Positions 13,644 to 30,585 of a stretch of DNA of 32,000 nucleotides are shown here, in pieces. The stretch is from Candidatus Bipolaricaulia bacterium (GTDB lineage: Bacteria > Bipolaricaulota > Bipolaricaulia > JBHIAT01): NCBI GenBank assembly GCA_046758705.1, contig JBHIAT010000005.1, positions 18,009 through 50,008 of the forward strand, written 5' to 3'. The position numbers and the translations under genes are program-made. Every line of letters starts with the position of its first letter. The first letter of the stretch is position 1. The notes below the pieces were generated by a model. The model was not told where the DNA came from and did not search any database. It saw only the letters and a list, made by a program, of their open reading frames with translations.

Positions 13644-13652
13644 CCATCTATC

Positions 13653-14225: not shown

Positions 14226-14240
14226 TAGCCCTACAGACCT

Positions 14241-15346: not shown

Positions 15347-16237
15347 ATGAACACCGAAAGTTATCATTTCAAGTTAGGCGAATTTGAATGCGTTTCTATC
15401 AGCGATGGCAGCTTCAATTATCCGATTGAAAGCTTTTTTGCCAACGCACCGAAGGAGCAACTTGAAGAGACCCTTCGCCAACACGACCTGCCATTAGAAC
15501 ATCTAACCACGCCGTACACCTGTCTGTTTGTCAGCACGGGCCAGCACCGGGTGATGATAGACACGGGTGCAGGAAATATAGGAGCAATCGCAGCCAAATT
15601 TTTCCCAAATGTGGACCATTCAACAACAATTACGGGCAATTTGCTCCAGAACATGGAAGCAGCGGGTATTAAGCTTGCGGACATTGATACAGTCATTATC
15701 ACGCACGCTCATCCAGATCATATTGGTGGCACACTTGATGATGGCAAGCTCGTTTTCGCCAACGCCCACTACTTTATCTCGAAAGACGAGTGGGATTTTT
15801 GGACTTCGGATATCGCTACAGCAAAAACTCCAGAACCCATGGTGAACATCGCGCGCAAAAATCTCGAACCCCTTCAAGATCGGCTGACCCTTATTGATAT
15901 TAATGATGAGTTTGAGACCGTGCCGGGCATCCAGGCTATTGCAACAGTCGGACACACGCCCGGTCATATCGCCTTGTCCATCGCCTCCGGTGGCGAGCAA
16001 TTGCTGCACATCTCCGATGCAGTGCTTTATCCGCTCCATCTGGAGCACCCGGAGTGGATCCCGGTCTTCGACATACTGCCTGAGGAAGCTGCCGCCAGCA
16101 AGCACCGAATCTTGGATCGGGCAGCACAGGGGAAGGCATTGGTGTTTGCCCATCACTTCCCTCCCTTCCCGAATCTGGGTCACGTTGTCAAGCAAGGGGA
16201 AGGATGGCAATGGCAACCGATTGAGACGAAGAGGTAA
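15347..16237 (+). CDS. MBL-fold metallo-hydrolase
   Basis: 296 aa. It has ITHAHPDHIGG (HxHxDH) and GHTPGH. AAAGGAGGA lies 7 nt upstream of the ATG. Confidence 0.85.
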   Translation: MNTESYHFKLGEFECVSISDGSFNYPIESFFANAPKEQLEETLRQHDLPLEHLTTPYTCLFVSTGQHRVMIDTGAGNIGAIAAKFFPNVDHSTTITGNLLQNMEAAGIKLADIDTVIITHAHPDHIGGTLDDGKLVFANAHYFISKDEWDFWTSDIATAKTPEPMVNIARKNLEPLQDRLTLIDINDEFETVPGIQAIATVGHTPGHIALSIASGGEQLLHISDAVLYPLHLEHPEWIPVFDILPEEAAASKHRILDRAAQGKALVFAHHFPPFPNLGHVVKQGEGWQWQPIETKR

Positions 16238-16412
16238 GGAATCGTCGAGGCCATTTGATAAGCTGCGCCTAACACAGGTGTTTCAGCCAGCTACCTATCT
16301 TGGCTTTAATTCAACACTGTTCAATTACAGGAATTGTTCAACAAGCCCGCAATTAGCAGGCTGTGTTGAAGTTGAATAAATACGAGTTACTCGGAGCGGA
16401 AGACTCATAGAG

Positions 16413-16440
16413 AAGCAGCAAATCGCTGCTTTTTCTGTCT
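16413..16440 (+). terminator. possible rho-independent terminator
   Basis: Stem AGCAGC (16414-16419) / GCTGCT (16425-16430), loop AAATC, followed by TTTTTCTGTCTTATTTT. Confidence 0.35.
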
Positions 16441-16526
16441 TATTTTGAGTTCTTAATGCCCGTCGTCAGACCAGTGTGGTGGGTCTCCCACCAGTTTGAT
16501 TACACCATAGGATGATCCTCCCAGCA

Positions 16527-16555
16527 TTGACTGAATCCCGCTTCTGATCTATAAT
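16527..16555 (+). promoter_or_regulatory. sigma70-like promoter TTGACT-17 nt-TATAAT
   Basis: -35 at 16527-16532 and -10 at 16550-16555, 65 nt upstream of the ATG at 16621. Confidence 0.5.
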
Positions 16556-16620
16556 AGCATTGTTATTACCGGGAAGGGTTATTAGCGGCAATTAACTAAA
16601 TTGAATGGGGTGTAGTTAAT

Positions 16621-17232
16621 ATGAGCAAGGAGGACACTATTCTCAGTGAGATAACAAAATTCTACTTGGATTCCGGCGATTTTAATGGTCTTCCTATCCG
16701 TGAGATTATCCGAAACTTTGAATTAGAAGGAAAAGAACTCGAAAACGTTCTCGCTTCTTTAATTGAAGAAGATAAAATCTCTCTCAACCTTGGAGACCGT
16801 CACCCAAATCCTCACATCAAGGCGTTTGATGAAGAACCTGCGGAAACACAGATAAAAAAGCTGCAGAGTTTAAACCTAGAGGACGCCTGCGCTTATCCCA
16901 CAAGATCACACCTCCAAGAAGTGGTTGACGTATCTGAGTATCAAGATAGACTCTTTACACTAAGGCTAGCCTTAGGCGAACCGCAGCTATTGGGGAGATC
17001 AACCCCTATCGAGAACCTCGGGATTCACCGGATAGCGGGGCCGCTCCAGGCTCCCGGTCGCGAGCGAGGCCTGGGCAACCAGTCGATCGCTTCTACAACT
17101 CTTCCTCTGGCCCCGGCAGATCCGGGCAGGTTTTTCGGTACGACTCATCGCCCAAGAACTGCTGCCACTCCGCGCGGGTCAGGTTGCGATTGGCTATGCT
17201 GCAGGCACGGGCTTGCCAGGACTCAAGGCTGA
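16621..17232 (+). CDS. hypothetical protein, probably 3'-truncated or chimeric at the island junction near 16991
   Basis: The first ~123 aa are AT-rich and protein-like. From ~16992 the frame runs through the 55-bp direct repeat and then antisense to the WD40 gene tail, giving a Pro/Arg/Gly-rich read-through. Confidence 0.35.
   Translation: MSKEDTILSEITKFYLDSGDFNGLPIREIIRNFELEGKELENVLASLIEEDKISLNLGDRHPNPHIKAFDEEPAETQIKKLQSLNLEDACAYPTRSHLQEVVDVSEYQDRLFTLRLALGEPQLLGRSTPIENLGIHRIAGPLQAPGRERGLGNQSIASTTLPLAPADPGRFFGTTHRPRTAATPRGSGCDWLCCRHGLARTQG
16992..17046. repeat. 55-bp direct repeat, left copy
   Basis: GGGGAGATCAACCCCTATCGAGAACCTCGGGATTCACCGGATAGCGGGGCCGCTC. It is 53/55 identical to 29393-29447; the mismatches are at 17013 and 17014. 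On the minus strand it encodes ..ERPRYPVNPEVLDRG-stop. Confidence 0.9.
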
Positions 17233-19921
17233 CATCCCACAAGAGGATAGTACCATCGTCACTTCCCGACGCCAGTGTTTTACTATTTGGGCTGAAAGCC
17301 ACACTGTTTACGCTAGACTTGTGGCCAGTGAGGGGTGACCCGAGCGGCTGGCGTGCCACGACATCCAATAGGATTACTGCACCATCGGCATTCGCCATCG
17401 CCAACATTTGGCCGTCCGGCCTAAACGCTACACTTTTCACTCCCCGTTGATCTGTGAGCGGTGGGCCAAGCATCTGCTGCGTTGCCACATCCCACAGAAT
17501 GATAGCGTTTTCCTGACTGGTCTTGCCTAAACTGCTTGAAGCCAGCAGTTGGCTGTCCGGGCTGAACGCCAAGCTGGTCACCCGTGCGGTATGCCCAGTG
17601 AGAGGCTGGCCAAGCGGTTGACGAGAGGTGACATCCCATAGCCTGATGGTGTCATCCCAACTACCCGATGCCAACGTTTTTCCATCGGGGCTGAAGGTCA
17701 CGCTTGACACCTCGTCAGTGTGTCCGGTGAGGGGTGGACCAAGCGGTCGACGAGCGGCGACATCCCACAAGATGATAGTGCCGTCCTCATTACCTGACGC
17801 CAGCATTTTGGCATCCGGGCTAAAGGTCACGCTCACCACCCGGCTTTCGTGTCCGGTAAGGGGTTGGCCAATGGGTCGACCAGTCGCGACATCCCACAGG
17901 ATGATGGTGCCGTCCGAACTACCCGACGCCAGTATTTTTCCGTCCGAGCTGAAAGCCTCGTTCAGTATGTTTTCTTTGATGGAAGACTGGCTTACTGGTC
18001 GATGTTCCTCAACATGCCATAAGATGATGCTGTCGTCCCTTTCGCCTGAAGGTTTACGACCAAACGATACCAACGACTGGCCATCTGGAGTGAAAATCAC
18101 GTTTGATATCGGGTCGGCGTGTGTCGTAAGGGACCGAGCAAGTGGCTCAGGGTTGGCAAGATTCCACATGATAATGGTGCCGTCCCGATCGCTCGACGCC
18201 AACGTTTGGCCATCCGGACTGAAGGCCACGCTCAACACCTCGTTAGTGTGTCCGGTGAGAGGTTGGCCGAGCGGCTTAAGGGTAGTGGCATCCCAAAGGA
18301 TGAGGGTGTTGTCCCGGCTGGCCGAGGCCAACATTTGGCCGTTGGGGCTGAAGGCCACGCTGTTCACAAGATGCTTGTGTCCGGTAAGGGGCTGGCCAAT
18401 GGGTTGACCAGTGGTGACATCCCATAGCCTGATGGTGTCGTCTGAACTACCCGACACTAGCATTTGGCCGTCGGGGCTGAAGGCCACACTGGTCAGCCAA
18501 CTTGCATGACCGGTAAGGGGCTGGCCAATGGGTTGACCAGTGGTGACATCCCATAGCCTGATGGTGTCGTCCCAACTACCTGACGCTAACATTTGGCCAT
18601 CGGGGCTGAAGGCCACGCTCACCACCCAGCTCTCGTGTCCAGTAAGGGGCTCGCTGATGGGCTGACCAGTCGCGACATCCCACAGGATAATGGTGTCGTC
18701 CGAACTACCCGATGCTAGCATTTGGCCATCCGGGCTGAAGGTCACGCTGTGCACCCAACTATTGTGGTCAGTTAGAGGGGGGCCAAGAGGCTGGCGATCC
18801 GCAACATCCCATAGCCGAATTTCGCCTTGCTTGCATAATCCACCTTCGTGGTCAGCGCAACTGCCCGAGGCCAACATTTTTCCGTCTGGGCTAAAGGCAA
18901 CGCTGTATACCCAGTTAGTGTGTCTGGTGAGGGGCGGTCCGAGCGGCCGGTGGGTAGCGACATCCCACAGGATAATACTGTTATCCCAACTGCTTGAGGC
19001 CAGCGTCTTTCCATCTGGACTGAAACTCACACTCAACACCCCGGCAGTGTGGCTGTGCAGGAAAGCGCTTAGGCGAGGGTTGTGTTCCAGCCCGGTGAGT
19101 AGACTACTTCGAGCTTCCAAAGTCTTTTTAACCTGGTGAGCTTCCACACTTAATAACAAGGCCAGGTTCAACTGGGCATCCAAGTGAGTGAGGGCTTGCG
19201 CAGCCAATTGGCGGGAGAGGGCGATCTGGCGCCGCTCTTCGGCAATCTGGCGCTGATAGAAAGCCCACCCTGTCAAAAAGGCTAACGCTACCGCTACACT
19301 AATGGCAACTATTGTGAGTGTCCTTTGGCGCTTAGCGGTGGCCTTACGACTGGCGGTGATGTACTGGGTTTGAAGTGACGTGGGCTTAGGTTCTTTCTCT
19401 GCGGCTTGCGCTAGCCATTCCTCCGCATCTCGTAGATCACTCCCGCGCAGCACAAAGCTGTTGTCACGCTCGTTGCTATCCCACTCAATGGCACGCTCCA
19501 GCAAGCGCGTATGCGCACGCACCCAGTCCAGATCGGTATCGATGGCTTCGATCAAAGATTGGAGGGCGCCATCGAAATCGTCACTCTCACGAAAGAAAAT
19601 CCAGTTGAGTGCAGCCAGAGCTTGAGGCACGGCTTCGGCGTCAACATCACGACGCACGATGGGCGTGAGCCGTTTATGGTGCTCGACAGCGTGAGCAAGC
19701 TCTTGAGCACAGACCTCTGAGTCCACGGAATCCGGACTGATGACGAATACAAACGTGTCAGCCGCCTCAATGGCAGAATAAACCTCCTCCAGCCACTCCG
19801 CAGAGGGGGGAATATCCTCCCAGTCAACCCAGGAGTCTCGGTCACGTTCGCTGAGCGCTTCATGTAGATCACGTACGAAATCCTGATCTTGGCGCGAGTA
19901 GGAGATAAAAACGTCAGCCAT
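17093..19921 (-). CDS. TIR domain / helical linker / single TM helix / 14x WD40 protein (no NTPase)
   Basis: 942-aa intact ORF. N-terminal TIR pattern: DVFISYSRQD...FVFVISPDSVDSEVCAQEL. Hydrophobic helix LTIVAISVAVALAFLTGWAFY at nt 19256-19318. 14 WD40 units follow. GAGG lies 5 nt upstream of the ATG. Confidence 0.9.
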   Translation of the reverse strand: MADVFISYSRQDQDFVRDLHEALSERDRDSWVDWEDIPPSAEWLEEVYSAIEAADTFVFVISPDSVDSEVCAQELAHAVEHHKRLTPIVRRDVDAEAVPQALAALNWIFFRESDDFDGALQSLIEAIDTDLDWVRAHTRLLERAIEWDSNERDNSFVLRGSDLRDAEEWLAQAAEKEPKPTSLQTQYITASRKATAKRQRTLTIVAISVAVALAFLTGWAFYQRQIAEERRQIALSRQLAAQALTHLDAQLNLALLLSVEAHQVKKTLEARSSLLTGLEHNPRLSAFLHSHTAGVLSVSFSPDGKTLASSSWDNSIILWDVATHRPLGPPLTRHTNWVYSVAFSPDGKMLASGSCADHEGGLCKQGEIRLWDVADRQPLGPPLTDHNSWVHSVTFSPDGQMLASGSSDDTIILWDVATGQPISEPLTGHESWVVSVAFSPDGQMLASGSWDDTIRLWDVTTGQPIGQPLTGHASWLTSVAFSPDGQMLVSGSSDDTIRLWDVTTGQPIGQPLTGHKHLVNSVAFSPNGQMLASASRDNTLILWDATTLKPLGQPLTGHTNEVLSVAFSPDGQTLASSDRDGTIIMWNLANPEPLARSLTTHADPISNVIFTPDGQSLVSFGRKPSGERDDSIILWHVEEHRPVSQSSIKENILNEAFSSDGKILASGSSDGTIILWDVATGRPIGQPLTGHESRVVSVTFSPDAKMLASGNEDGTIILWDVAARRPLGPPLTGHTDEVSSVTFSPDGKTLASGSWDDTIRLWDVTSRQPLGQPLTGHTARVTSLAFSPDSQLLASSSLGKTSQENAIILWDVATQQMLGPPLTDQRGVKSVAFRPDGQMLAMANADGAVILLDVVARQPLGSPLTGHKSSVNSVAFSPNSKTLASGSDDGTILLWDVSLESWQARACSIANRNLTRAEWQQFLGDESYRKTCPDLPGPEEEL
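17231..19051 (-). repeat. in-frame WD40 repeat array, 14 units
   Basis: Units were counted in the translation, and the boundaries checked against nucleotides (His codon of unit 1 at 19049-19051). Confidence 0.85.
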
Positions 19922-19951
19922 GTCACCCTCTGGGACAGTACGACTTTTGCT

Positions 19952-20884
19952 TCAATTGGATCGCTGTTCGGTTAAAGTTGCGATGTCGAGCGCCAGACGG
20001 TCGAAAAAAGCGGATTCAGGTTGAGCAAGTATCGTCCGAGCGTTCAGGTCACGCAAAGGTACCGAGCCGATTCCAGGGTCAAGCACCTCCCAAGGCACAA
20101 CATCCGCCAGAAGTCCAGGCAGCAACAGCGGAAAGATGCCCCGTGGACCGTCGAGTTGAGCATACGACCCCAGTGCCCAGTGTACCTCCTGTATGACCGC
20201 TTCGCTGTTCAGCGAAGCATCACTCAACAGGACCACAAAGGCGTCGGCGATGCGCAGATTGTCCTGAACTGCTATACGCCAGTTTTCGCCTGCCCGCAAT
20301 GCTGTCAGATCGCGCCACACCGTCAGACCGCGTTCCTCCAGAGCTTTCTGAACTTTAGCTGCAAGCACCTCATCCTCACGCGCATAACTGATCAACACCC
20401 GACACCCATAGCGCAGTTTGCGTTCCATCCAGATCAGCTGCTCCACACTGCGCGCGTCAGGTTCCGGGAAACCACGCAGCCACCAGCCAATCTTGCTTGC
20501 AGATTGGATCGGCTTCTTGTTAGTGAATCGCAACTTCAGCAGTTCTGAGGTAAAGTCGCGCACGGTGGTGGACTTGAACGAGAAATGGTACGTGCCTTCG
20601 GCATTGGTAGCAATAACAGCGTATTTGCCATAATTCTTGTAAGGGATCTGATCCATCTGTTCTTTTGGCACAGCCATACAGCCGGCCAATTTATAAGCCA
20701 GCGTATAGATGCGCTGACCATTGCTGTTCACCACGCTGGTGACGATCCACAGCGTACCCCCACTGGCCAGTTTGTAGATCACCTTGCTCTTGCTGCGGTA
20801 GAAGTTAGCGCGGAACGCGGGATGCCCGCCGGGGCCACGTCGCAGAATATCCCAATTGACATAGGCCAGTGCATGTCGGCTCAT
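19952..20884 (-). CDS. unknown N-terminal domain (~165 aa) + C-terminal TIR domain protein
   Basis: 310 aa. C-terminal TIR pattern: RVLISYAREDEVLAAKVQKALEERGLTVWRD...AFVVLLSDASLNSEAVIQEV. I recognise no motif in the N-terminal half. Confidence 0.75.
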   Translation of the reverse strand: MSRHALAYVNWDILRRGPGGHPAFRANFYRSKSKVIYKLASGGTLWIVTSVVNSNGQRIYTLAYKLAGCMAVPKEQMDQIPYKNYGKYAVIATNAEGTYHFSFKSTTVRDFTSELLKLRFTNKKPIQSASKIGWWLRGFPEPDARSVEQLIWMERKLRYGCRVLISYAREDEVLAAKVQKALEERGLTVWRDLTALRAGENWRIAVQDNLRIADAFVVLLSDASLNSEAVIQEVHWALGSYAQLDGPRGIFPLLLPGLLADVVPWEVLDPGIGSVPLRDLNARTILAQPESAFFDRLALDIATLTEQRSN

Positions 20885-20899
20885 ATGGATTTATTCCCC

Positions 20900-22663
20900 T
20901 TAACCAGCCTTGTTTCTCATTTCACCTTCTCTTCTGTCTTCAGTTTGCTGGGCGTACAATTCGGCCAGCGCATTTTCCATCCGCTGCACCCAACCGGTAT
21001 GTTCACCCTTGAGAATCTTTTCTGTATGCTTGACCAGTTTGTCGACGTTTTTTGGATCTGCCTGTTCCTTAGGCAACAACGCCGTCCACCAGGCCTGCAC
21101 ATTGGCCAAGTCCGTCGCCACTTGGTTGTATTTCATCAGCGTGTTCTCGATCTGCTGGTATTCCAGGTATGTGATGAAAGCAGCCGCCAACGCCGTCGTC
21201 AGCGCGATCCACAGTTCTACCCCCAACGCAGCCAGCAAGGTGCCCACACCACCAGAGATGTAAATCAACCATTGTAAGCGCTTCAACTGCCGCTCCAGTT
21301 TAGTCGTTTTGAGCCGATAGAAATTGAGCTGGTCACCCAGTCGAATAGTGATGTAGCGATCGGGTGTGAGGAAGCTGAATCCGTCGTCGTCCGCCGCCGC
21401 GCCGTCCATCTTAGGTGGAATAGGATCCACGTACGGGCGCAAGGCCGATAGATTCACGTCGGTTTGCATTAACTGACGGCTGACGGACTCTACCTCGCGG
21501 GTCAGTTTGGCCTCTCGGGAAGTCTTCCCCATCTGCTGATCGTTGTAGATCCCGGCCTTGGCGCGATAGCGAAATATCTCTCGTTTGATCGCTTCGGCGC
21601 CGGCACGCAGCAACACCCACTTGTTGCCTGCTTTGAAGCGGTTGGCCGCCGCCACCAAAATAGAAACTGTGATCGGCACGATCACGATGACATAGTGAAG
21701 CACCTGACCCTGCCAAGAACGGTCATTCTGTATCCCCAACTCCCTTTGGCTCAATACCAGGAGTGTGCCGAGCACCCCCAGCGTCAGAATCCCCAGTTGC
21801 AGTCTGTTAAAGCTGATCTGCTGGCGTTTAGCGTTGTCGTCGTAGAGCGCAAAGCGCTCCCAGACCAGCCTGAGTGTTGTGTGCCTGCTCAACTGGCGAA
21901 TGATCATTCGTTCCAGCCCTGCGATCGGATCATCTAGCGAAAAGAGATGAAAATCACCATCGGCGATAATCTCGGCCATTACCGGGTCGTCGATAAAGGA
22001 AGGCTTTTCCTGACATAACGTGGCGATTTCGTCTGCCAGCCGTCTGCTGCCTTCGATAACAATGATGGGCCAGCCTCGCCGCACGCTACGCAACACCTCT
22101 TCCTTAGCAATGAGACCACCATTGACGAGCACTGTCACGGCAGGGACTCCTTTAGCCAACCCCTCTGCTAACTCATATAGTGTATCTGTTTCTCCGCCCC
22201 AGTCATTGCTTTCTACTAATACAAAATGGGAGTGGTTGGGATCGAGCGGCGCGCTGTCCTCAATGCTATCTTCGGCCGGTCCGCCAGGGTAAGTGACCTT
22301 GCCCGCAGGCGCCACGCCCAACAGAGTTGACCTTCGTCCCCGGTCGACAACGCCCTGGCCCATCATGGCCATCACCCCCACCTGCGTGCCGCCGTCAATG
22401 ATCAACGCGCCCGTGTCGGCGGCGGCGCGAGCGATGCCGCGACTGAACAACTGAACCAAGCGGGATTTCAGTTCCTCATCGAGACCTGCCGCACCACCGA
22501 CGATCATAAGCAGCGCTTTTGGTTGTTCAATGCCCAGTACGTGTAGGATGTTGGCGGCGCTTGTTTCAGCCGGTGGAGCCACCAGTTGCGCCCGATTGCC
22601 GTTAGGAAAAAGGATTTCCTTTTTGCTCTCGTCTTGATTTGCTTGTTGTGTGCCCACTAGCAA
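20900..22663 (-). CDS. SLOG (TRPM/LSDAT-like) domain + two SLATT-like 2TM modules; predicted nucleotide-gated membrane effector
   Basis: 587-aa ORF. SLOG-like Gly-rich motifs: MIVGGAAG, IIDGGTQVGVMAMMG, VLVNGG. Four hydrophobic helices: LGILTLGVLGTLLVL, VLHYVIVIVPITVSILVAAA, WLIYISGGVGTLLAALGV, LWIALTTALAAAFITYL. The likely true start is the GTG at 22657, which has GGAGG 6 nt upstream, rather than the TTG at 22663. Confidence 0.75.
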   Translation of the reverse strand: MLVGTQQANQDESKKEILFPNGNRAQLVAPPAETSAANILHVLGIEQPKALLMIVGGAAGLDEELKSRLVQLFSRGIARAAADTGALIIDGGTQVGVMAMMGQGVVDRGRRSTLLGVAPAGKVTYPGGPAEDSIEDSAPLDPNHSHFVLVESNDWGGETDTLYELAEGLAKGVPAVTVLVNGGLIAKEEVLRSVRRGWPIIVIEGSRRLADEIATLCQEKPSFIDDPVMAEIIADGDFHLFSLDDPIAGLERMIIRQLSRHTTLRLVWERFALYDDNAKRQQISFNRLQLGILTLGVLGTLLVLSQRELGIQNDRSWQGQVLHYVIVIVPITVSILVAAANRFKAGNKWVLLRAGAEAIKREIFRYRAKAGIYNDQQMGKTSREAKLTREVESVSRQLMQTDVNLSALRPYVDPIPPKMDGAAADDDGFSFLTPDRYITIRLGDQLNFYRLKTTKLERQLKRLQWLIYISGGVGTLLAALGVELWIALTTALAAAFITYLEYQQIENTLMKYNQVATDLANVQAWWTALLPKEQADPKNVDKLVKHTEKILKGEHTGWVQRMENALAELYAQQTEDRREGEMRNKAG

Positions 22664-22687
22664 CCTCCTGTTTTGAAACGCTCGGTT

Positions 22688-24961
22688 TCAAGGGTTGCGG
22701 TGTACATGATATGTTGGAAAGGTGCCATACCCTTTAGCCAACGGAGTTTGTCCGACGTAGTCGCACGTGAAGTCACTGATGCGCTCAGCTGCTGCCAAGG
22801 CCGCGAACGGTTGGCTAGCGTAGACATGACCCGGCGGCGTGATCGGCTCGATCCGGGCAGCCCAATTGACGTGCGAACCGGTGTAGCTGTGCTGTTCAAT
22901 GACTGGATCTTTGCAAGAGTACACAGGGCCAGCATGCAGCGCAATGCGAAGGTTCAGATCCTCGGGCAATCCTTTCTCCATCCAATCGGTGCTGCGCAGC
23001 CAGTCACTCAGTTCGAGGGCAAAATTGCCCGCCTGCTTGACAGAGGAGAAGACAAAATATAGAGCATCGCCCCAGGTGTTCTTCATTACCGGCTTATGGG
23101 GAGATGCAGCTACCAGATCGGAGACTGCTCCCATGAAGTGCGCCACGAAGCGTGGGATCTCTTCCTCAGTGAGCTTACTGTACCCCACTACGTCGGCGAA
23201 GAGCATCGCCATGATCTCTTGGGGAAAGCCAGGTGGAGTGGTTATCAGGTAGGGAACGGTTGGAGTCGCAGGTTTGCTGGTTACCGGGGCGGATTGGATG
23301 ACGATAGTCTTCTCTAGTAGAGTAGCAATATCCACCACCTCAGGTTCTCGATCCTGCGAGCGCCAGTGTTCCACCAGTGAAGTGGTGCCCCCTGGTCCAT
23401 CGCCAGGGCGGCCGTCCCACACGACCAGGGGGATCACCTCGGTATCCAGCATCTGTGCCCGTAGCGCTGCCAGGCCATCCTGCATGAGGTTGGAGTATTC
23501 GTAGGCAACCGCACTTCCTGAAGCGCGATGCTCGCTGGCAACCATAACGCGGGCGACCTGCTTCAACACGCGTCGGAAACGCCTCCCCCAATTGGCTCCA
23601 GGAATGATGTCCACACTGGCCGTCTGAAACTCATCCTTCGGAAATGGCAGTACAACATGGATCTCACCTTTTTGCCTTAGCATCGCTTCCAGGAAGAGGA
23701 TGTCGGAGCCGCAGGCTGCTGAGGCGTAGCCAATGCGTGCATCCAATTTCTTCAACCTAGCAGCGATCTCCTGACGGACCAGCTTTTCCAGTGATTGGGG
23801 AAAGCGCGGTCGAGGCCGGCCCGGTTGGTCAATCATATGGCCGGCAAAGACGACGATCCGGGGAATCCCAAAACAGCGGTCGAAACGATGTTTGTCACCA
23901 CCCAGGTACTCCATCAAGAGTCGGGCATTGTGCCGGGTAGAACCCAGGTCGGCGTAATTTCCTTGCCCCTGTTCTGCTGCTCGGATATATCGGGCTTCAG
24001 CCTCGATCCACTCACCTAAGATGATTGCCGCCTCCCCCAGCGATGCCTCAGCCCAGTAGTCATCCTGCTCCTGCAATTTTTCCAGACAGAGAACACGGAC
24101 TTTGCGGGCCAGCTCCTTGGCGTGCTCTTGTTGTCCCATCAGCAGGGCCGTGGTGGCCGCGTTGATCCCGGTGTAAATGGCATCGTCAACTTTGTTCCCT
24201 CTTACCGCCAGGCGGTACGCCTTGGAATAAATATCGTGTGCCTGACGCAATTGGGCTTCTCGTTCGGCAGGGTCCGTTGCCTGTTCCCGGAGATCTTTGT
24301 GAGTGCGAGCAAGGAGGCCGAGCGTCTCCCCATCGGTATGCCCCTCGTGGTGGAGTTGGGAGAGAATCTCATTGGCTCGTTCGATCGCTCCACTGCGGGC
24401 GAGCGCCAATCCCTTAAGTTGCCTCAGGCGCACGTTTTTGGGCCAGTGCTTCAAGCCCGTAGCGATAATGTCATAAGCCAACAAAGGTTCGCCCGCCTTC
24501 AGGATCCGGTTGCCCAGCACTTCGTAGAGCTCAGAGGAACCGGCCCAATGCCCCGATGATATCGGTGCCCAAATCGATAGGAGATCTGTCAGGTCCAATT
24601 TGTCAGGGCCCTTCAGTCGTTCCAGCGCTTCTGTAACGGCTTCATAAGAAGAGCCAGAAGCGGATGAAGATCTCCGAGACGGGCTCTCAATCCGATACCC
24701 CAGAGCAATGATCGTCTTCAACACTTCCATCGCTGTTATGCGATCGTATTCCTTCTCGGACTCGGAGAGCTGCGCGTAGGGCAACAGGTCGGGATGCTTC
24801 TTGTTCGCGTCATCCTGCTGAGGTCCATAGGTCCAGCCTGCGGCAATGCGCTGCTGAGCCCAGAGGTCATGGTTATTTTCGGCCAGCAACTCGGTGAGTT
24901 TGCGAAGTCCCTTGGGCAACTTCATGCCCGAGGTGTCAATCGGTTTAGGTTCGTAAGTCAT
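22688..24961 (-). CDS. RyR-like domain / TPR-like (DUF4071-like) region / SLOG/LOG-like Rossmannoid module / class III adenylate-guanylate-type nucleotide cyclase
   Basis: 757 aa. The RyR-like segment is LAENNHDLWAQQRIAAGWTYG...HPDLLPYAQLSESEKEYDR. A helical repeat region contains YTGINAATTALLMG. The Rossmannoid module reads IVVFAGHMID...GYASAACGSDILFLEAML..GEIHVVLPF. The cyclase motifs FADVVGYS, WGDALYFVF, LRIALHAGPV and GSHVNWAARIE are all intact. The ATG overlaps the upstream stop (ATGA). Confidence 0.8.
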   Translation of the reverse strand: MTYEPKPIDTSGMKLPKGLRKLTELLAENNHDLWAQQRIAAGWTYGPQQDDANKKHPDLLPYAQLSESEKEYDRITAMEVLKTIIALGYRIESPSRRSSSASGSSYEAVTEALERLKGPDKLDLTDLLSIWAPISSGHWAGSSELYEVLGNRILKAGEPLLAYDIIATGLKHWPKNVRLRQLKGLALARSGAIERANEILSQLHHEGHTDGETLGLLARTHKDLREQATDPAEREAQLRQAHDIYSKAYRLAVRGNKVDDAIYTGINAATTALLMGQQEHAKELARKVRVLCLEKLQEQDDYWAEASLGEAAIILGEWIEAEARYIRAAEQGQGNYADLGSTRHNARLLMEYLGGDKHRFDRCFGIPRIVVFAGHMIDQPGRPRPRFPQSLEKLVRQEIAARLKKLDARIGYASAACGSDILFLEAMLRQKGEIHVVLPFPKDEFQTASVDIIPGANWGRRFRRVLKQVARVMVASEHRASGSAVAYEYSNLMQDGLAALRAQMLDTEVIPLVVWDGRPGDGPGGTTSLVEHWRSQDREPEVVDIATLLEKTIVIQSAPVTSKPATPTVPYLITTPPGFPQEIMAMLFADVVGYSKLTEEEIPRFVAHFMGAVSDLVAASPHKPVMKNTWGDALYFVFSSVKQAGNFALELSDWLRSTDWMEKGLPEDLNLRIALHAGPVYSCKDPVIEQHSYTGSHVNWAARIEPITPPGHVYASQPFAALAAAERISDFTCDYVGQTPLAKGYGTFPTYHVHRNP

Positions 24962-27900
24962 GGTATTCCTCCTTCCTCTGGCTCTGGCAGATTCGGGCAG
25001 GTCTTGCGATACGGCTCATCGCCCAGATACTGCTGCCACTCGTCCAGTGTGAGATTGTGTGTCAGGCGGGAGCAGGCTTCGGCAATCAGGTCTTCCGGCT
25101 GCCACAGCCACACGCGGGCGGTGCCGTCCCAACTTGCTGAGGCCAGCCGGCGTCCGTCGGGGCTGAAGGCTACGGCGCTCACCGGGCCATCGTGGAACAT
25201 GCGGGCGACCTCGCGCCCAGTTTCTGCCTCCCACACGCGGGCGGTGCCGTCCACACTCCCTGTGGCTAGCTGGCGTCCGTCGGGGCTGAAGGTTACGGCA
25301 GACACCCTGCCATCGTGCATCATGCGGGCGAGCTCGCGGCCAGTCGTTGCCTCCCACACGCGGGCAGTGCCGTCCCAACTTGCTGAGGCCAGCCGGCGTC
25401 CGTCGGGGCTGAAGGCTACGGCAGACACCAGGTCATCGTGCATCATACGGGCGATCTGGCGGCCGGACTCCGCCTCCCACACGCGGGCGGTGCCGTCCCA
25501 GCTCGCCGAGGCTAGCCAGCGTCCGTCGGGGCTGAAGGTCACAGCCACCACCTGGCGTTCGCTTTCATGCATCATCTGGGCGACTTGGCGACCGGACTCC
25601 GCCTCCCACACGTGGGCGGTGCCGTCTCTGCTCGCTGAGGCGATCCACTGCCCGTCGGGGCTAAAGACCACGGCATTTACCCGGTCTTTGTGGGTCATGC
25701 GAGCGATCTCGCGGCTGGATTCTGTCTCCCACACACGGGCAGTGCCGTCATCGCTCGCCGAGGCCAACCAGCGTCCGTCGGGACTGAAGGCCACAGCATT
25801 CACCGGGTCTTCGTGGGGCATGCGGGCGATCTGGCGGCCGACCGTTGCCTCCCACACGTGGGCAGTATTATCATCGCCTCCCGAGGCCAGCCAGCGTCCG
25901 TCGGGGCTGAAGGCCACGGCATTCACCGGGTCTTCGTGGGGCATGCGGGCGATCTGGCGGCCGGCCGTTGCCTCCCACACACGGGCAGTGTTGTCATCGC
26001 CTCCCGAGGCCAGCCAGCGTCCGTCGGGGCTGAAGGCTATGACAGACACCCTACCTTCATGCATCGTGCGGACGACGTGGCGGCCGGCCGTTGCCTCCCA
26101 CACGCGGGCGGTGCGATCCTCGCTGGCTGAGGCGATCCACTGCCCGTCGGGGCTGAAGGTCACGGCGCTCACCAAGCCTTCATGCGTCATGCGGGCGATC
26201 TGGCGGCCGGTTTCCGTCTCCCACACACGGGCAGTACGATCCCCGCTGGCCGAGGCGATCCACTGCCCGTCGGGGCTGAAGGCTACGGCACTCACCGGGC
26301 CTTCGTGGGTCATGCGGGCGACCTGGCGGCCGGTTTCCGTCTCCCACACGCGGGTGGTGCCATCCTCGCTGGCCGAGGCGATCCACTGCCCGCCGGGGCT
26401 GAAGGCTACCTCCAACACTGGGCCATCGTGGGGCATGCGGGCGATCTGGCGGCCGGTTTCCGCCTCCCACACGCGGGCGGTGCCATCCTCGCTGGCCGAG
26501 GCGATCCACTGCCCGCTGGGGCTGAAGGTCACGGCATTGACATCACCATTGTGGGTCATGCGGGCAAGTTCACGCCCAGTTTCCGCCTCCCACACGCGGG
26601 CAGTGCCGTCCCTGCTTCCCGAGGCTAGCCAGCGTCCGTCGGGGCTGAAGACCACAGTCCTCACCGGGCCATCGTGGGGCATGCGGGCGATCTGGCGGCC
26701 GGTTTCCGCCTCCCACACCTGGGCAGTGTTGTCGTTGCTTCCCGAGGCCAGCCAGCGTCCGTCGGGGCTGAAGGTGACAGTTACCACCGGGCCATCGTGA
26801 GTCATGCGGGCGATCTCGTGGCCGGACTCCGCCTCCCACACGCGGACGGTGCCATCCCAGCTGGCTGAGGTTACCCAGTGACTGTCAGAGTTGAAGGCCA
26901 CGGCAGACACCCCGCCTTGGTGAGTCATGCGGGCGATCTGGCGGCCGGACTCCGCCTCCCACACGCGGGCGGTGCCGTCCACACTCCCTGTGGCTAGCTG
27001 GCTTCCGTCGGGGCTGAAGGCTACGGCAAACACCCAGCTTTCGTGCGCCATCTGGGCCACGGGACGCGAGAGCAGCGCTAGGCTGTGACGTAGGGCTTGG
27101 TCACCCTCCAACGTGGGAACGCGTCGCAGGGACTCCACGACCAAGAGCACGCTGCGCGGCAGCAAATCTGCTTGCTGGACCCGCACAAACTCGGCCTGAG
27201 CCGCCAACTGGCGTGCCAACTGTTCCTCGGCCACCTGACGCTGCTCTTCAGCGATCCGGCGCTGTTCTTCGGCGCGTCGCCATTGCAGGCCAGCTACCCC
27301 GCCCAAAATCAGAGCTGCCAGCAGACCTAGGGTAAGCCCTAAGATCACGCGCCGCCGTAGGCGTTCTCGCGCTGCCCGCTCCTGCTTCCGCAGGGCAAGG
27401 CTCTCCTGGGTATATCCTTGCTCATCCGGGTTTAGGTCGTCGGGCCGCTCGGTCAGCCAACGCTCAGCTTCGGCCAGCGAGGCACCGCGTAACAGGGCGC
27501 CCTCGTCGCGCTCAGTGCGCTCCCACTCGGTCAGGGCTGCTCGCAGCCGTTGCCTCCAGAGAAGAAACTCCCGGTCTTCGTCTAGCCAACTCTGCAACTG
27601 CTTCCATCCTCGGACGAGGGCTTCATGAACCACCTCGACCGTTTCCTTGCCAAAGACCTCGCGAGCGACCCCGACTTTCTCCTCCTCTGTGACACCATCC
27701 CGCCCTGTCACTAGCAGCCGGGCGTCAGCCAGGGTCTTGATCACCGACCGGGCCTCTTCGCCGAGCTCGACCAACGTGGCCCGCCTGCGGGTGTCTTCAC
27801 TCCCTTCTTCAGGCTGTGCTACACGGACCAGCCGGGTAAAGACGCGGCGAGTAGCCTTCCGCTGCTCTGGCGTGAATTTCGCAAATTCCGCCTCTGCCCG

Positions 27901-29193
27901 CTGGGCGATGGCCCCTGCTACCTCCCCGATGTCCTCGTAAGCAGCGTGGGTCAACATCCCGCCCTGTCGCTGCGCCCACAGTTCCGTCAGCGCAAACTCC
28001 AACAGAGGCAGGTTGCCTGGGTTATCTCCTACATCGTCAAGGATGCGGTCCACTAGCCCGGGCTCGAAGGTCAGCCCTACCTTTTGAGCAGGATCAACGA
28101 TGGCTCGTTCCAGTTCGTCTCGTTTCATAGAGCCCAGGTTGACCACGCCCCCCTCCAGGCGGTCGCTCAGATCTCGTGTTAAGGCGAGAGCGTTACCGTA
28201 GAAGTCAGCCCGCAGGGTGAGCAGAACGGACAGCGGTGCCCGCTCTAAAGCGTTCAGCAGAGCTGTCACAAAGGACTTGCGATCTGTTTTCGGCGTCAGG
28301 GTGAAGAGTTCCTCGAATTGATCCGCCACCAGCAACAGTCGGTCGGTGCCCTCGGATTTCTCCAGGAGGCGCTCGACGGCGTCCTCCAGGAGTGTCTCTC
28401 CGTTTGCTAGCCGCTTTCCCAACTTCCGAGCCTCTGTCAGGCGGTCCGTCTCGTTCAGGCTCGGCTCCAGGAGCGAGATGAGGGCCGCGGCCAGGCGGTG
28501 GAAGGGGCGATCTCCGGGAGTGAAGAGAACCGCATCCCAGGTCGCTGCTGGCGGGCGTTGACGACGCAGCAGAGGTAATAACCCCGCTTGCACGACGGAG
28601 GATTTGCCGCTGCCAGAGGGCCCGACGACCGCCACCAGATTTCGATTCAGCGTTGCCTTCAACAACCGTTTGGAAAATTCCTCCTGCCCGAAGAAGAAGG
28701 CAGCGTGCTCCTCACCAAAGGCCCGTAGACCCCGATAGGGACACAGGGCCACGCGCACTTCTTCCGGCCGGACTGCCTCCTTCCCCCGGACGGCTCGCAC
28801 CAGTGCATCCAACGCCTCGGAGTCGGTGAGGTCTTGGTGTAGATCCACCCAGGTGTTAAGGAACAGGAAACCGGAGGTGAGGTCGGCACCGGGGAGTAGG
28901 ACGGGGATGACAGGAAAAACGCGCCCGGCCTTCTCCTCCTGCACCTGGCGGTCTAGGGCGAACCCTATCTCCCGCTTTTGCCAGAGGCCTAGGTCATGGG
29001 GGCCGAGGAAGACAGCCACGGCGCGTGCGCTGCGCAGCGCTTCTTCCAGGGCCTGGGGCCAGGGCAGACCCGCCACCAGGTTCTCACGGTCCAAAAAGGT
29101 GGCAATCCCACGGGCTTCCAGAAGCTGCCGAACGGTCTGGATCGATTTGCGATCAGGACTGTGGTAACTCAGAAAGAGGTCATAAGTACTCAT
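24958..29193 (-). CDS. TIR / STAND P-loop NTPase (nSTAND-like) / single TM helix / 16x WD40 protein
   Basis: 1411-aa intact ORF. TIR pattern: YDLFLSYHSPD...AVAVFLGPHDLGLWQKREI. The linker CPYRGLRAFGEEHAAFFFGQE is followed by Walker A GPSGSGKSS (nt 28603-28623). Hydrophobic helix VILGLTLGLLAALILGGVAGL at nt 27286-27348. 16 WD40 units follow. Confidence 0.9.
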   Translation of the reverse strand: MSTYDLFLSYHSPDRKSIQTVRQLLEARGIATFLDRENLVAGLPWPQALEEALRSARAVAVFLGPHDLGLWQKREIGFALDRQVQEEKAGRVFPVIPVLLPGADLTSGFLFLNTWVDLHQDLTDSEALDALVRAVRGKEAVRPEEVRVALCPYRGLRAFGEEHAAFFFGQEEFSKRLLKATLNRNLVAVVGPSGSGKSSVVQAGLLPLLRRQRPPAATWDAVLFTPGDRPFHRLAAALISLLEPSLNETDRLTEARKLGKRLANGETLLEDAVERLLEKSEGTDRLLLVADQFEELFTLTPKTDRKSFVTALLNALERAPLSVLLTLRADFYGNALALTRDLSDRLEGGVVNLGSMKRDELERAIVDPAQKVGLTFEPGLVDRILDDVGDNPGNLPLLEFALTELWAQRQGGMLTHAAYEDIGEVAGAIAQRAEAEFAKFTPEQRKATRRVFTRLVRVAQPEEGSEDTRRRATLVELGEEARSVIKTLADARLLVTGRDGVTEEEKVGVAREVFGKETVEVVHEALVRGWKQLQSWLDEDREFLLWRQRLRAALTEWERTERDEGALLRGASLAEAERWLTERPDDLNPDEQGYTQESLALRKQERAARERLRRRVILGLTLGLLAALILGGVAGLQWRRAEEQRRIAEEQRQVAEEQLARQLAAQAEFVRVQQADLLPRSVLLVVESLRRVPTLEGDQALRHSLALLSRPVAQMAHESWVFAVAFSPDGSQLATGSVDGTARVWEAESGRQIARMTHQGGVSAVAFNSDSHWVTSASWDGTVRVWEAESGHEIARMTHDGPVVTVTFSPDGRWLASGSNDNTAQVWEAETGRQIARMPHDGPVRTVVFSPDGRWLASGSRDGTARVWEAETGRELARMTHNGDVNAVTFSPSGQWIASASEDGTARVWEAETGRQIARMPHDGPVLEVAFSPGGQWIASASEDGTTRVWETETGRQVARMTHEGPVSAVAFSPDGQWIASASGDRTARVWETETGRQIARMTHEGLVSAVTFSPDGQWIASASEDRTARVWEATAGRHVVRTMHEGRVSVIAFSPDGRWLASGGDDNTARVWEATAGRQIARMPHEDPVNAVAFSPDGRWLASGGDDNTAHVWEATVGRQIARMPHEDPVNAVAFSPDGRWLASASDDGTARVWETESSREIARMTHKDRVNAVVFSPDGQWIASASRDGTAHVWEAESGRQVAQMMHESERQVVAVTFSPDGRWLASASWDGTARVWEAESGRQIARMMHDDLVSAVAFSPDGRRLASASWDGTARVWEATTGRELARMMHDGRVSAVTFSPDGRQLATGSVDGTARVWEAETGREVARMFHDGPVSAVAFSPDGRRLASASWDGTARVWLWQPEDLIAEACSRLTHNLTLDEWQQYLGDEPYRKTCPNLPEPEEGGIP
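25102..27045 (-). repeat. in-frame tandem array of 16 WD40 units with a 123-bp (41-aa) period and high inter-unit nucleotide identity
   Basis: Unit consensus is HxxxVxAVAFSPDG(R/Q)W(L/I)ASxSxDGTARVWEAETGRQIARM. Unit 13 has a 2-aa insertion and unit 16 is 31 aa. The boundaries were verified (His codon at 27043-27045). Confidence 0.9.
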
Positions 29194-29260: not shown

Positions 29261-29290
29261 ATAGTATCTCATAGGGTATCAGATCGTCAA
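29261..29290 (-). promoter_or_regulatory. possible operon promoter TTGACG-18 nt-TACTAT (minus strand)
   Basis: -35 is the reverse complement of 29285-29290 and -10 the reverse complement of 29261-29266, about 70 nt upstream of the ATG at 29193. Confidence 0.3.
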
Positions 29291-29547: not shown

Positions 29548-30585
29548 TTACCTCTGAAAATCTTTAAGCAAGGTGCTGTCAATGATACGCTCATTCGTTT
29601 GGAGGTTGAAAAGCTTGCCTTTAGTAGCGACAAGAAGCTTTTTGACATCCTCTCGCCGGATACCGAAGCCACGTCCATCCACACAAGCCACCACCTCAAA
29701 AGCCGAACCACCACTTCGCAGCCGCTGATCCCTGAGTTCTGCCAGATGCTGCACGCGAGTTACTTTATCTCGGGCCGTGCCGTCATCTTCAGCCAACTTA
29801 GCTTCAAGAACCACAGTTGGTCGAAACTGGTTAGGTACCAGGAAGTCAGGAGCTTGGTCCATATCCTCAAATCGTTCGGCAACACCAGCTTTATGGTAGG
29901 GAATGTGTCTGGAATCCAACATCTCCTTTACAGCGTTTTCTATGATATCTCCTACTTTTTCAGATACAGCATCTCGGTGTGTAGCAAAGGGACGACCTAG
30001 AAAACGTTCGTAAAGCAGCATTGCATAAGGAATACCTGCTTCAGCCAATTGCTTGATACCCTCAAGTCCCTCTCTTGTATCTGCCTTGTCAAGACGGTGG
30101 ATCACCCCCTCGCTCACAGCAGGCGCTCCTTGCTTAATAAGTTCCACTGCTGTACGGACAAGGGCTGCCACCTGTTGTTGTGTTTTCGAAGTGGTTCGAT
30201 CAAGAAGAGGCTGTCCCTCTCTGGAACGCTTATCGAGCCTACGAGCAGTAGATTGACCAATTTCTACACCGGTCGTCACGCCGGTTATGTAGGCAAATTC
30301 CGGGGGAGAAAAACCGAGCATTGTTCGGAGCACTACCAAGACTAACGGATCCTGATGGAGCACAGCCAGTACTGACTCTGTTGAGAAATCCTCAAAGTTC
30401 GCTGTCCCATTCTTCAGGGCCTCATAAGCCTGCTGAAAGCGAGGGAATTCAACAAATCCCCTTCCCTTCGGCATGACCATAAAGAAGGATTGCAGGTCGT
30501 TGATAAAGCTATCCACGTAGTAGTCGATGTTGGCTGTTAGTTCTTCAGTCGTGACTTCAAAGGGGTAACGTGGGATGCCCATCAA
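29548..30585 (-). CDS. putative type II restriction endonuclease (PD-(D/E)xK)
   Basis: 345 aa. It carries the motif APDFLVPNQFRPTVVLEAKL (PD...ExK). It has a 4-nt overlap with the upstream methyltransferase gene. Confidence 0.5.
   Translation of the reverse strand: MMGIPRYPFEVTTEELTANIDYYVDSFINDLQSFFMVMPKGRGFVEFPRFQQAYEALKNGTANFEDFSTESVLAVLHQDPLVLVVLRTMLGFSPPEFAYITGVTTGVEIGQSTARRLDKRSREGQPLLDRTTSKTQQQVAALVRTAVELIKQGAPAVSEGVIHRLDKADTREGLEGIKQLAEAGIPYAMLLYERFLGRPFATHRDAVSEKVGDIIENAVKEMLDSRHIPYHKAGVAERFEDMDQAPDFLVPNQFRPTVVLEAKLAEDDGTARDKVTRVQHLAELRDQRLRSGGSAFEVVACVDGRGFGIRREDVKKLLVATKGKLFNLQTNERIIDSTLLKDFQR

Follow-up and report, generated by a model that had tools for sequence, protein, structure and literature searches.

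A five-gene operon joining TIR, STAND, WD40, cyclase and SLATT proteins

The window analyzed here is a stretch of 32,000 nucleotides from the genome of a Candidatus Bipolaricaulia bacterium (contig JBHIAT010000005.1), whose minus strand carries a compact block of five genes, here numbered from gene 1 to gene 5. Together they encode three TIR domains, a STAND NTPase, two WD40 arrays, a nucleotide cyclase and two proteins with SLOG or SLOG-like domains, one of them fused to SLATT membrane units. The most fitting description of the locus is that of two recurrent TIR-centered modules in one operon, the first consisting of the gene 2 family with TIR/STAND partners and the second of the gene 3 family with TIR-sensor partners. 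The genes are:

24958-29193, minus strand: gene 1, intact open reading frame (ORF), 1411 amino acids; TIR, nSTAND1 NTPase, one transmembrane (TM) helix, 16 WD40 repeats
22688-24961, minus strand: gene 2, intact ORF, 757 amino acids; RyR, TPR-S, SLOG-like and class III cyclase domains
20900-22663, minus strand: gene 3, intact ORF, 587 amino acids from a TTG start (585 in the NCBI annotation); LSDAT-type SLOG and two 2-TM SLATT units
19952-20884, minus strand: gene 4, intact ORF, 310 amino acids; rare unnamed N-terminal domain and TIR
17093-19921, minus strand: gene 5, intact ORF, 942 amino acids; TIR, one TM helix, about 14 WD40 repeats

A first-pass annotation, made from the letters of the window alone, had described five intact minus-strand ORFs separated by one overlap and short gaps, and the ORF coordinates confirmed this layout: genes 1 and 2 share a 4-nucleotide ATGA overlap (24958-24961), and the remaining gaps measure 24 (or 30) nucleotides between genes 2 and 3, 15 between genes 3 and 4, and 30 between genes 4 and 5. 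The products of genes 2, 3 and 4 are 100% identical to NCBI-annotated proteins of a 50.2-kb contig from a Candidatus Bipolaricaulia metagenome-assembled genome (MAG). A promoter scan of the block returned a single promoter-like site, lying upstream of gene 1:

29261-29290, minus strand: sigma-70-like promoter match, TTGACG, 16-18 nucleotide spacer, GATACT/TACTAT, 9/12 positions; a consensus match only

Terminator-like sites were not in excess within the five genes (8 vs. 11.2 expected from shuffled sequence). The overlap, the gaps of 15-30 nucleotides, the lack of a terminator excess and the promoter-like site upstream of gene 1 argue together for a single transcript. Genes 2 to 5 are moreover uniform in composition (GC 0.55-0.57; GC at third codon positions, GC3, 0.61-0.64), from which we argue that the four move as one group here. 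The jump in GC at the junction of genes 1 and 2 prompted us to consider an assembly chimera, which was ruled out by the precise ATGA overlap and by the presence of the gene 2 protein on three contigs (NCBI, Logan).

Genes 1 and 5: TIR domains coupled to WD40 arrays

The domains recognized by the first-pass annotation, namely TIR, STAND, WD40, RyR, TPR-like and cyclase, as well as the SLOG and SLATT domains of gene 3, were all backed by Pfam matches. The features of gene 1 are:

28744-29193, minus strand: TIR domain, amino acids 1-150; Pfam TIR_2, 1.1e-19; Glu75 in WQKREI
27502-28740, minus strand: nSTAND1 NTPase, amino acids 152-564; Pfam PF20703, 2.7e-122
27283-27348, minus strand: predicted TM helix, amino acids ~616-637; hydropathy, N-flank strongly positive
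25108-27045, minus strand: WD40 array, 15.7 copies of a 123-nucleotide unit with ~79% identity

The Walker A motif of the NTPase reads GPSGSGKSS (amino acids 191-199), and 16 WD40 stretches were delineated by Pfam. Gene 5 resembles the gene 1 protein minus the NTPase, with a TIR domain (Pfam TIR_2, 2e-27), one TM helix predicted at amino acids ~202-220 and flanked by a much more positive N-terminal side (hydropathy and flank charge), and an array of 129-nucleotide units in which Pfam recognizes at least 12 WD40 stretches. A catalytic Glu had been claimed for all three TIR domains of the operon, and the Glu of the W/C-x-x-x-E motif is indeed present in each of them (Glu75 in gene 1, Glu233 in gene 4 and Glu74 in gene 5). 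The Glu74 of gene 5 was aligned by phmmer with AbTir, Cat1 and TLR sequences, while the W-x-x-x-E motif around Glu75 of gene 1 was matched by eye to WTNYEL of AbTir, the phmmer alignment being gapped differently.

In both genes the WD40 arrays are homogenized in DNA, and differences between copies are confined to few repeat positions. Following the positive-inside rule, the TIR domains, and in gene 1 also the STAND NTPase, would lie inside the cell and the WD40 repeats outside. Among the single-TM TIR partners found in related loci, 23 of 37 share the TIR-inside flank bias and 8 have the opposite one. Gene 1 looks like a fusion of two partner types of the gene 2 family, TIR-TM-X and nSTAND1-TM-TPR.

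Two other ORFs overlap these genes. A repetitive ORF of 668 amino acids (24794-26800, plus strand) lies antisense to the GC-rich stretch of WD40 repeats in gene 1 and is most likely a by-product of repeat composition rather than a gene, and a putative gene of 203 amino acids with no family match (16621-17232, plus strand) converges on gene 5 and overlaps its 3′ end by 140 nucleotides.

Gene 2: a cyclase behind RyR, TPR-S and SLOG-like domains

The protein encoded by gene 2 is divided as follows:

24686-24955, minus strand: RyR domain, amino acids 3-92; Pfam RyR, 2e-35
23906-24452, minus strand: TPR-S / MAP3K_TRAF_bd-like helical repeats, amino acids ~170-352; Pfam TPR-S, 1.1e-17, and MAP3K_TRAF_bd, 2.2e-5
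23303-23869, minus strand: SLOG-like Rossmannoid domain, amino acids 365-553; motifs SAACGSD (414-420) and GDGPGGT (520-526)
22697-23221, minus strand: class III nucleotide cyclase domain, amino acids 581-755; Pfam Guanylate_cyc, 2.8e-8

The RyR profile of the family matches all four repeats of RyR2 (best per-domain E 4e-27) and the bacterial structure 3NRT, and this bacterial domain is unusually close to the repeats of animal (vertebrate) ryanodine receptors. A full-text literature search for an RyR domain together with TIR and a cyclase in bacteria gave no match. The structural model predicted from the family alignment (predicted local distance difference test, pLDDT, 86) is all-helical across amino acids 104-352.

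The region that follows had been called SLOG-like, a claim that has moderate support at the level of the fold, where structure searches return the SLOG superfamily, and is not borne out by Pfam, in which amino acids 360-570 had no match at E ≤ 5; its family profile had none either among PDB sequences at E ≤ 10. The motifs SAACGSD and G(D)GPGGT are conserved in the family alignment. Since Foldseek with the whole protein listed cyclases only among its top 50 matches, amino acids 365-553 were modeled alone, yielding a Rossmann-like α/β domain (pLDDT 85) whose top matches in the PDB, with E up to ~1e-3, all belong to the SLOG superfamily: DprA (E 2.8e-6), ShosA, Moco-carrier protein (MCP), TM1055 and LOG. 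We therefore regard this domain as SLOG-like with moderate confidence.

For the C-terminal domain, Foldseek gave E 2e-8 and target-normalized template modeling scores (TM-scores) of 0.75-0.81 to CyaB, RhGC and Cya2. The catalytic residues had been described as intact, in agreement with the alignment to 3MR7 and 3ET6, which places the metal-binding Asp at D590 and D632, the phosphate-binding Arg at R672 and the Asn/Arg pair of the transition state at N699 and R703. Across the family D590, R672 and R703 are invariant, D632 is conserved in at least 90% of members and N699 is replaced by Ser in most relatives. The canonical base-specifying pair (Lys/Asp for ATP, Glu/Cys for GTP) is lacking: at the first position all family members have the non-canonical Asn628, and the second varies, being Ser in this protein. 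The non-canonical Asn628 makes the product of the cyclase unpredictable.

Genes 3 and 4

Gene 3 fits the LSDAT-SLATT family (Pfam PF18171 and PF18181), in which an N-terminal LSDAT-type SLOG is joined to 2-TM SLATT modules; gene 4 pairs its TIR domain with an unnamed one:

21941-22546, minus strand: LSDAT SLOG domain of gene 3, amino acids 40-241; LSDAT_prok, 4.3e-52, and LSDAT_euk, 2e-20
20990-21853, minus strand: SLATT region of gene 3; DUF4231/SLATT_3 at amino acids 271-405 (DUF4231, 1e-14) and SLATT_1 at amino acids 437-558 (5.4e-29)
20414-20884, minus strand: N-terminal domain of gene 4, amino acids 1-157; motif GGTLW.VTS…Y.LAYKL..C

Four TM helices are predicted in gene 3 from hydropathy, and the best solved relatives of its family SLOG profile in the PDB are the MHR1/2 domains of TRPM2 (1.9e-26), a region reported to bind ADP-ribose (ADPR).

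The TIR domain of gene 4 (Pfam TIR_2, 3e-19) has its Glu233 aligned by phmmer with AbTir, Cat1 and TLR sequences. Amino acids 1-157 had no Pfam match at E ≤ 5, and this N-terminal domain is rare, with 35 representatives in 1.84 billion proteins; its fusion partners, in a scan of 21 members, are TIR (17), KAP_NTPase (2), CHAT (1) and WD40 (1). A search with the full-length protein found seven relatives having the same N-terminal domain. Gene 4 was also considered as an obligate partner of gene 3 and rejected as such: its closest relatives adjoin other genes (shikimate dehydrogenase and amidase, where flanks are annotated), and the order gene 3 to gene 4 recurred at a single locus (L089), where a gene 4-like gene lies directly downstream of the gene 3 relative.

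Conservation and gene neighborhoods

The gene 2 family is conserved over its full length and comprises more than 1,900 clusters at E ≤ 1e-5; identity is 50-68% for the 120 best, and columns of the alignment have a mean identity of 60%. To describe its neighborhoods one genome per GTDB species was scanned, giving at least 580 loci of which 80 were retained; partner counts were made over 81 loci. The retained loci span Acidobacteriota, Cyanobacteriota, Desulfobacterota, Methylomirabilota, Poribacteria, Chloroflexota and Planctomycetota. Of the 81 loci, 39 have a TIR gene directly adjacent to the gene 2 relative and 47 have one no more than three genes away; an nSTAND1 gene lay at most three genes away in 21. 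Around the relatives in the 80 GTDB loci the TIR genes are concentrated next to the family member, at position +1 in 33% and −1 in 22%, compared to 0% at positions ±6-8. The partners are either TIR-TM-X proteins of ~500-640 amino acids, X being TPR, Sel1 or other domains, or nSTAND1-TM-TPR proteins of ~920-1,500 amino acids. In Acidobacteriota (L001, L003, L004, L009 and others) a frequent neighbor of ~636 amino acids consists of a TIR domain, one TM helix and a large C-terminal domain left unlabeled by the probes used.

The closest relatives of gene 2 stand in contexts other than that of the window. Beside the closest relative (L165, 68% identity) a gene for a Macro domain, an ADP-ribose-binding fold, lies upstream (79-633, minus strand), and a protein of 423 amino acids with weak TPR matches is encoded 20 nucleotides downstream (3180-4451, plus strand), in the place that gene 3 occupies in the window. 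Another close relative stands among TPR-S, PLD, phosphoesterase and TIR genes. A third is followed by an RyR-repeat protein and a DUF4062-NACHT-WD40 giant. At L083 a protein of 893 amino acids (8996-11677), encoded next to a gene 2 relative, carries two C-terminal RyR copies. At L081 (1-642, plus strand) we observed a TPR-S/MAP3K_TRAF_bd protein of 422 amino acids whose C-terminal part matches the SLOG-like domain of gene 2 (profile 366-545, E 1.4e-23), which indicates that the pair of TPR-S and SLOG-like domains also exists without RyR and cyclase. A full-length gene 2 relative with 56% identity was also found on a 3.3-kb contig (P0017) of a Methanosarcinaceae archaeon MAG, to be explained either by transfer into archaea or by a binning error.

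A related arrangement is found on a plasmid of Priestia aryabhattai (L175, NZ_CP128553.1), where an operon at 3118-11327 faces a convergent TIR gene of 743 amino acids. Its products are a PycTM effector, a permuted cyclase–TPR-S protein, a stand-alone RyR protein of 94 amino acids (7460-7744) and two proteins of unknown type. The cyclase–TPR-S protein is 33% identical to the cyclase of gene 2 and shares its NTWGDA and ARIEP-T-PG motifs. The operon represents, in Bacillota, another version of this domain set that includes a Pycsar-type membrane effector, and it shows that the cyclase clade of gene 2 can adjoin such an effector.

For the gene 3 family a word-limited search returned at least 799 clusters; the 120 listed have 52-71% BLASTP identity and cover 80-100% of gene 3 (most ≥93%). 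In 80 metagenome loci TIR genes were found at position +1 of the gene 3 relative in 22% and at −1 in 8%, and the partners include gene 5-like TIR-TM-WD40 genes, with TIR identity up to 65% (L091, L093, L132, L135, L143, L144). The closest gene 3 relative (74% in the alignment) is followed by two TIR-FGE-sulfatase genes, and a relative on a Chlorohelix plasmid is near a TIR-NACHT-FGE-sulfatase gene, amid toxin-antitoxin and integrase genes. TPR-S proteins adjoin gene 3 relatives at L106 and L110, a weak family-level link between genes 2 and 3. The unlabeled genes of ~420-540 amino acids beside gene 3 relatives were considered as a hidden partner and discarded, as they encode DAO oxidoreductases, MFS transporters, a Mur ligase, an amino-acid permease, a histidine kinase and, in one case, a TPR-S protein.

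No gene 3 relative was detected by tblastn, phmmer or profile hidden Markov model in the 80 genome loci of gene 2 relatives, nor was a full gene 2 in the 80 metagenome loci of gene 3 relatives, where only TPR-S, RyR or cyclase fragments were found. Among the sampled loci, the joining of the two modules is therefore unique to the window.

Genomic surroundings of the operon

The operon is immediately preceded, on its own strand (29548-32000, minus strand), by a type II DNA methyltransferase-like gene (30582-32000), which reaches the end of the window, and by an overlapping gene of 345 amino acids with no confident family and a faint EcoRII-C match; they probably form a restriction-modification pair. 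The GC of these genes is 0.49, and the composition of the region is a mosaic. On the other side, a second nSTAND1-WD40 gene (3468-6812, minus strand, 1114 amino acids) bears an N-terminal trypsin-like peptidase instead of a TIR domain and has a GC3 of 0.70, near that of gene 1. Between this gene and the operon a stretch of low GC (7000-17000; 0.42-0.50) looks like an inserted mobile or defense segment. It includes:

9769-10344: phage-integrase-family gene
10363-11349: PDC-S69-like candidate defense gene
12485-13276: trypsin-like peptidase gene
13653-14225: helix-turn-helix gene
15347-16237: metallo-beta-lactamase-fold gene

ARAGORN found no tRNA anywhere in the window, and hence no tRNA mark of an integration site.

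Comparison with described systems

The first-pass annotation had considered that no named system covers this composition, and the five-gene set is indeed a member of no curated PADLOC or NCBIfam system. None of the PADLOC models matched gene 2 (E ≤ 0.01) or gene 3, while genes 4 and 5 gave generic TIR matches and genes 1 and 5 also repeat-model matches through their WD40 arrays; gene 1 matched HEAT-ARM_XIII via WD40, SAVED_TIR and PDC-S66 via TIR and, weakly, mad3, mad8 and HEC-01A; its NTPase region drew weak matches. NCBIfam has no model for genes 2 or 4 and only SLATT domain models for gene 3. The further suggestion of a candidate undescribed system goes too far as regards the parts, which are curated Pfam families and whose pairings of TIR with SLOG and of TIR with SLATT are already verified or reported Thoeris types.

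The nearest described kinds are Thoeris, Pycsar and NLR-like STAND proteins. In Thoeris type I a cyclic ADP-ribose (cADPR) isomer made by the TIR protein activates ThsA (SIR2-SLOG) through its SLOG domain, in type VII a TIR protein is coupled to the SLATT effector ThsH with cADPR as the signal, and type III, as cited in a preprint, combines several TIR proteins with a SLOG effector. The operon shares with these systems TIR genes that retain the catalytic Glu beside a predicted effector having a SLOG sensor and/or a SLATT module (gene 3), the multiplicity of TIR genes at one locus known from type III, and weak matches of genes 4 and 5 to ThsB models (PADLOC, best 5e-8). It differs from them in having no match to ThsA, and gene 5 reaches 31 bits with Thoeris_type3_ThcB4, whose cut-off is 220. 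Furthermore, the SLOG domain of gene 3 is of the LSDAT/TRPM type and fused straight to two SLATT units, the TIR proteins bear a TM helix and WD40 arrays or a STAND NTPase, and a second, SLOG-like putative receiver fused to RyR, TPR-S and cyclase is present (gene 2).

LSDAT-SLATT, TPR-S and nSTAND1 are curated Pfam families that, according to citing papers, derive from published comparative-genomic predictions. LSDAT-SLATT and TPR-S were predicted to act in nucleotide-centric conflict systems (Burroughs et al., 2015; Burroughs and Aravind, 2020; through PF18171, PF18181, PF20308 and citing papers), and SLATT was predicted to be a permeability effector regulated by ADP-ribose derivatives. As far as Pfam names and citing papers convey these predictions, gene 3 corresponds to them as LSDAT_prok plus SLATT_1 and gene 2 by carrying TPR-S, while the five-gene combination was absent from the loci we sampled; the architecture of gene 2 and its TIR linkage were compared through the same names and citing papers only.

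The C-terminus of gene 2 recalls Pycsar (PycC with a PycTM or PycTIR effector activated by cyclic nucleoside monophosphates, cNMP) through its cyclase of class III fold, in which the metal and transition-state residues are intact and the residue at the base-specifying position is non-canonical, and on the Priestia plasmid a PycTM effector shares an operon with a related cyclase–TPR-S gene. Gene 2 differs in matching no PADLOC Pycsar model and in having its cyclase behind RyR, TPR-S and SLOG regulatory domains. Gene 1, with a TIR effector, a STAND NTPase and C-terminal repeats, resembles NLR-like STAND proteins (Avs/AVAST, bNACHT and the nSTAND1 conflict proteins of Kaur et al., 2021), a class to which the trypsin-headed nSTAND1-WD40 gene of the window also corresponds; it is distinguished by the TM helix between NTPase and WD40 array, by its translational coupling to a SLOG-cyclase gene and by having no match to Avs1-5 in PADLOC, where marginal Avs matches were limited to the flanking trypsin proteins.

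In the BcTir/Tpr anti-phage system of Bacillus cereus, TIR, YspA-SLOG, LSDAT and calcineurin are listed by the authors as alternative partners of the Tpr core (bioRxiv 10.1101/2023.05.26.542521). A TIR gene beside a TPR-core protein, TPR-S in the gene 2 family, is common to both; BcTpr, compared by description only, is reported with an N-terminal NADase domain and without RyR, SLOG or cyclase. Finally, likenesses to animal proteins concern single domains, namely the SLOG of gene 3 (TRPM2), the RyR of gene 2 (ryanodine receptor) and the TPR region of gene 2, which matches MAP3K_TRAF_bd (ASK1, MAP3K5), whereas the TRP pore, the RyR pore and the kinase are absent and the membrane part of the locus is SLATT.

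Proposed mechanism and alternative explanations

With moderate confidence, at about an even chance, we read the locus as a co-transcribed Thoeris-like anti-phage or abortive-infection operon with two TIR-centered modules and two SLOG receivers, a reading that follows from the fact that both modules place a TIR protein beside a protein with a SLOG-type sensor. The WD40 propellers of genes 1 and 5, predicted to lie outside the membrane and variable at few surface positions, would bind an invader- or envelope-derived cue, upon which the nSTAND1 NTPase of gene 1 would oligomerize and cluster the cytoplasmic TIR domains, as is expected from the STAND and TIR families; gene 4 may join this clustering or have a separate trigger. 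The TIR domains would then cleave or cyclize NAD+ to an ADP-ribose-derived nucleotide. In gene 3 the TRPM2-like LSDAT SLOG would bind this signal and open or oligomerize its own four-helix SLATT, so that membrane integrity would collapse, and in gene 2 the SLOG-like/TPR-S region may bind it and activate the class III cyclase, whose output could be either a second cyclic nucleotide of unpredictable base or a drain of nucleoside triphosphates. A logic of this kind, with signal generators, SLOG receptors, a membrane effector and repeat sensors, had been put forward in the first-pass annotation and appears consistent with the domain content. The listing of LSDAT among the partners in the BcTir/Tpr preprint adds a weak family-level link between the gene 2 and gene 3 modules. 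We consider it improbable that the locus is a two-tier cascade in which Toll-like WD40/TIR receptors generate an ADPR-type product that is read both by a TRPM2-type SLOG gating a SLATT pore and by an RyR/TPR-S/SLOG module driving a second-messenger cyclase.

A number of observations weigh against the Thoeris-like reading. The first-pass annotation had treated the five genes as one conflict system, to be recognized by their co-conservation, and this did not hold: genes 2 and 3 occurred together in 0 of the 160 sampled loci, the five genes are not co-conserved, and the closest relatives of genes 2, 3 and 4 occupy other contexts. About half of the gene 2 relatives lack a TIR gene at a distance of up to three genes, and many gene 3 relatives are solitary amid housekeeping genes (DAO oxidoreductase, MFS transporters, Mur ligase). 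The synteny of gene 2 across Pyrinomonadaceae, near sigma-factor-like and peptidase genes, looks vertical rather than like a mobile defense island. Gene 1 is distinct in composition from genes 2 to 5 (GC 0.65, GC3 0.74). The TM-scores of the gene 2 middle domain to SLOG folds are low (0.3-0.4), and hhalign of this domain against the SLOG alignment of gene 3 was insignificant (probability 0.1). As to the output of the cyclase, Pfam recognized no cNMP-binding or PycTM domain in the five operon proteins, nor a cNMP-binding effector in the window. According to the systematic survey of Thoeris, a TIR domain fused to a STAND NTPase is usually an effector depleting NAD+ and makes no signal. Lastly, the functional roles of all five gene families are predicted ones.

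Part of this evidence would fit two or three independent conflict systems, [gene 1 + gene 2] and [gene 3 + gene 4 + gene 5], adjacent in a defense island and co-transcribed without cross-talk. Each module indeed recurs alone and never with the other in the 160 loci, the closest relatives of genes 2 and 3 have different neighbors, and the surroundings are a mosaic of defense and mobile elements in which gene 1 has a composition of its own. Against such independence speak a gap of just 24 nucleotides between genes 2 and 3 and no excess of terminator-like sites, a composition that genes 2 to 5 share and that gene 1, the supposed partner of gene 2, does not, and the TPR-S proteins adjoining LSDAT-SLATT genes elsewhere; moreover, TIR products of one class would be the ligands of the SLOG-type domains on both receivers. 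Overall we regard independent systems as unlikely, although a serious alternative. Considerably less likely is that the TIR domains are terminal NAD+ depleters of the Avs or SARM1 type, with genes 3 and 2 answering the fall of NAD+, the rise of ADPR or unrelated cues. The order effector-NTPase-sensor of gene 1 is NLR-like, an arrangement whose executioner is, as a rule, the N-terminal domain, and the Thoeris survey left out the TIR domains of Avs as likely NAD+ depleters. On the other hand, three TIR genes beside two SLOG-bearing genes follow the Thoeris pattern, and TIR genes are enriched beside each of the SLOG-bearing families also at loci that lack a STAND gene.

The locus might also serve transmembrane signaling outside immunity (envelope stress, kin or neighbor recognition, development), with WD40 receptors acting through TIR and SLOG on a cNMP output and an ion-conducting SLATT. 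This would be in agreement with the high conservation of the gene 2 family (60% mean column identity, and 50-57% identity across phyla), with its synteny within Pyrinomonadaceae and the housekeeping surroundings of many gene 3 genes, as well as with the predicted topology, TIR inside and sensor outside, that resembles a receptor. However, partners vary as in conflict systems, with WD40, TPR, Sel1 and FGE-sulfatase sensors and nSTAND1 and NACHT NTPases; the window has a defense-island context and relatives lie on plasmids near toxin-antitoxin genes and a PycTM effector; and the WD40 arrays are homogenized with few variable positions, as in allorecognition and immune sensors. A non-immune role appears about as improbable as terminal NAD+ depletion.

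Implications for TIR-linked signaling

The reading of TIR-made nucleotides by SLOG domains is a theme common to bacterial, plant and animal immunity, and the locus points to two large TIR-linked families with predicted roles, RyR–TPR-S–SLOG–cyclase and LSDAT–SLATT. The composite operon itself may be a one-off, and should the Thoeris-like model fail, it would still be a clean example of defense islands splicing modules into one transcript. If the model is true, gene 3 would be a Thoeris-type effector with a sensor that corresponds directly, on the bacterial side, to the domain by which TRPM2 binds ADPR. Gene 2 would link a TIR signal to a nucleotide cyclase in a cascade of two messengers, for which we know of no earlier example, and it would open a bacterial route to what RyR repeats do. 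An internal TIR domain, one TM helix and an external repeat sensor, as predicted here, would likewise represent, if true, a Toll-like receptor layout in bacteria. If the RyR domain is part of a receptor for the TIR product, the gene set would be a prokaryotic forerunner of the animal axis that links cADPR and ADPR to ryanodine receptors and TRPM2, and a tractable one for identifying the ligands of RyR repeats.

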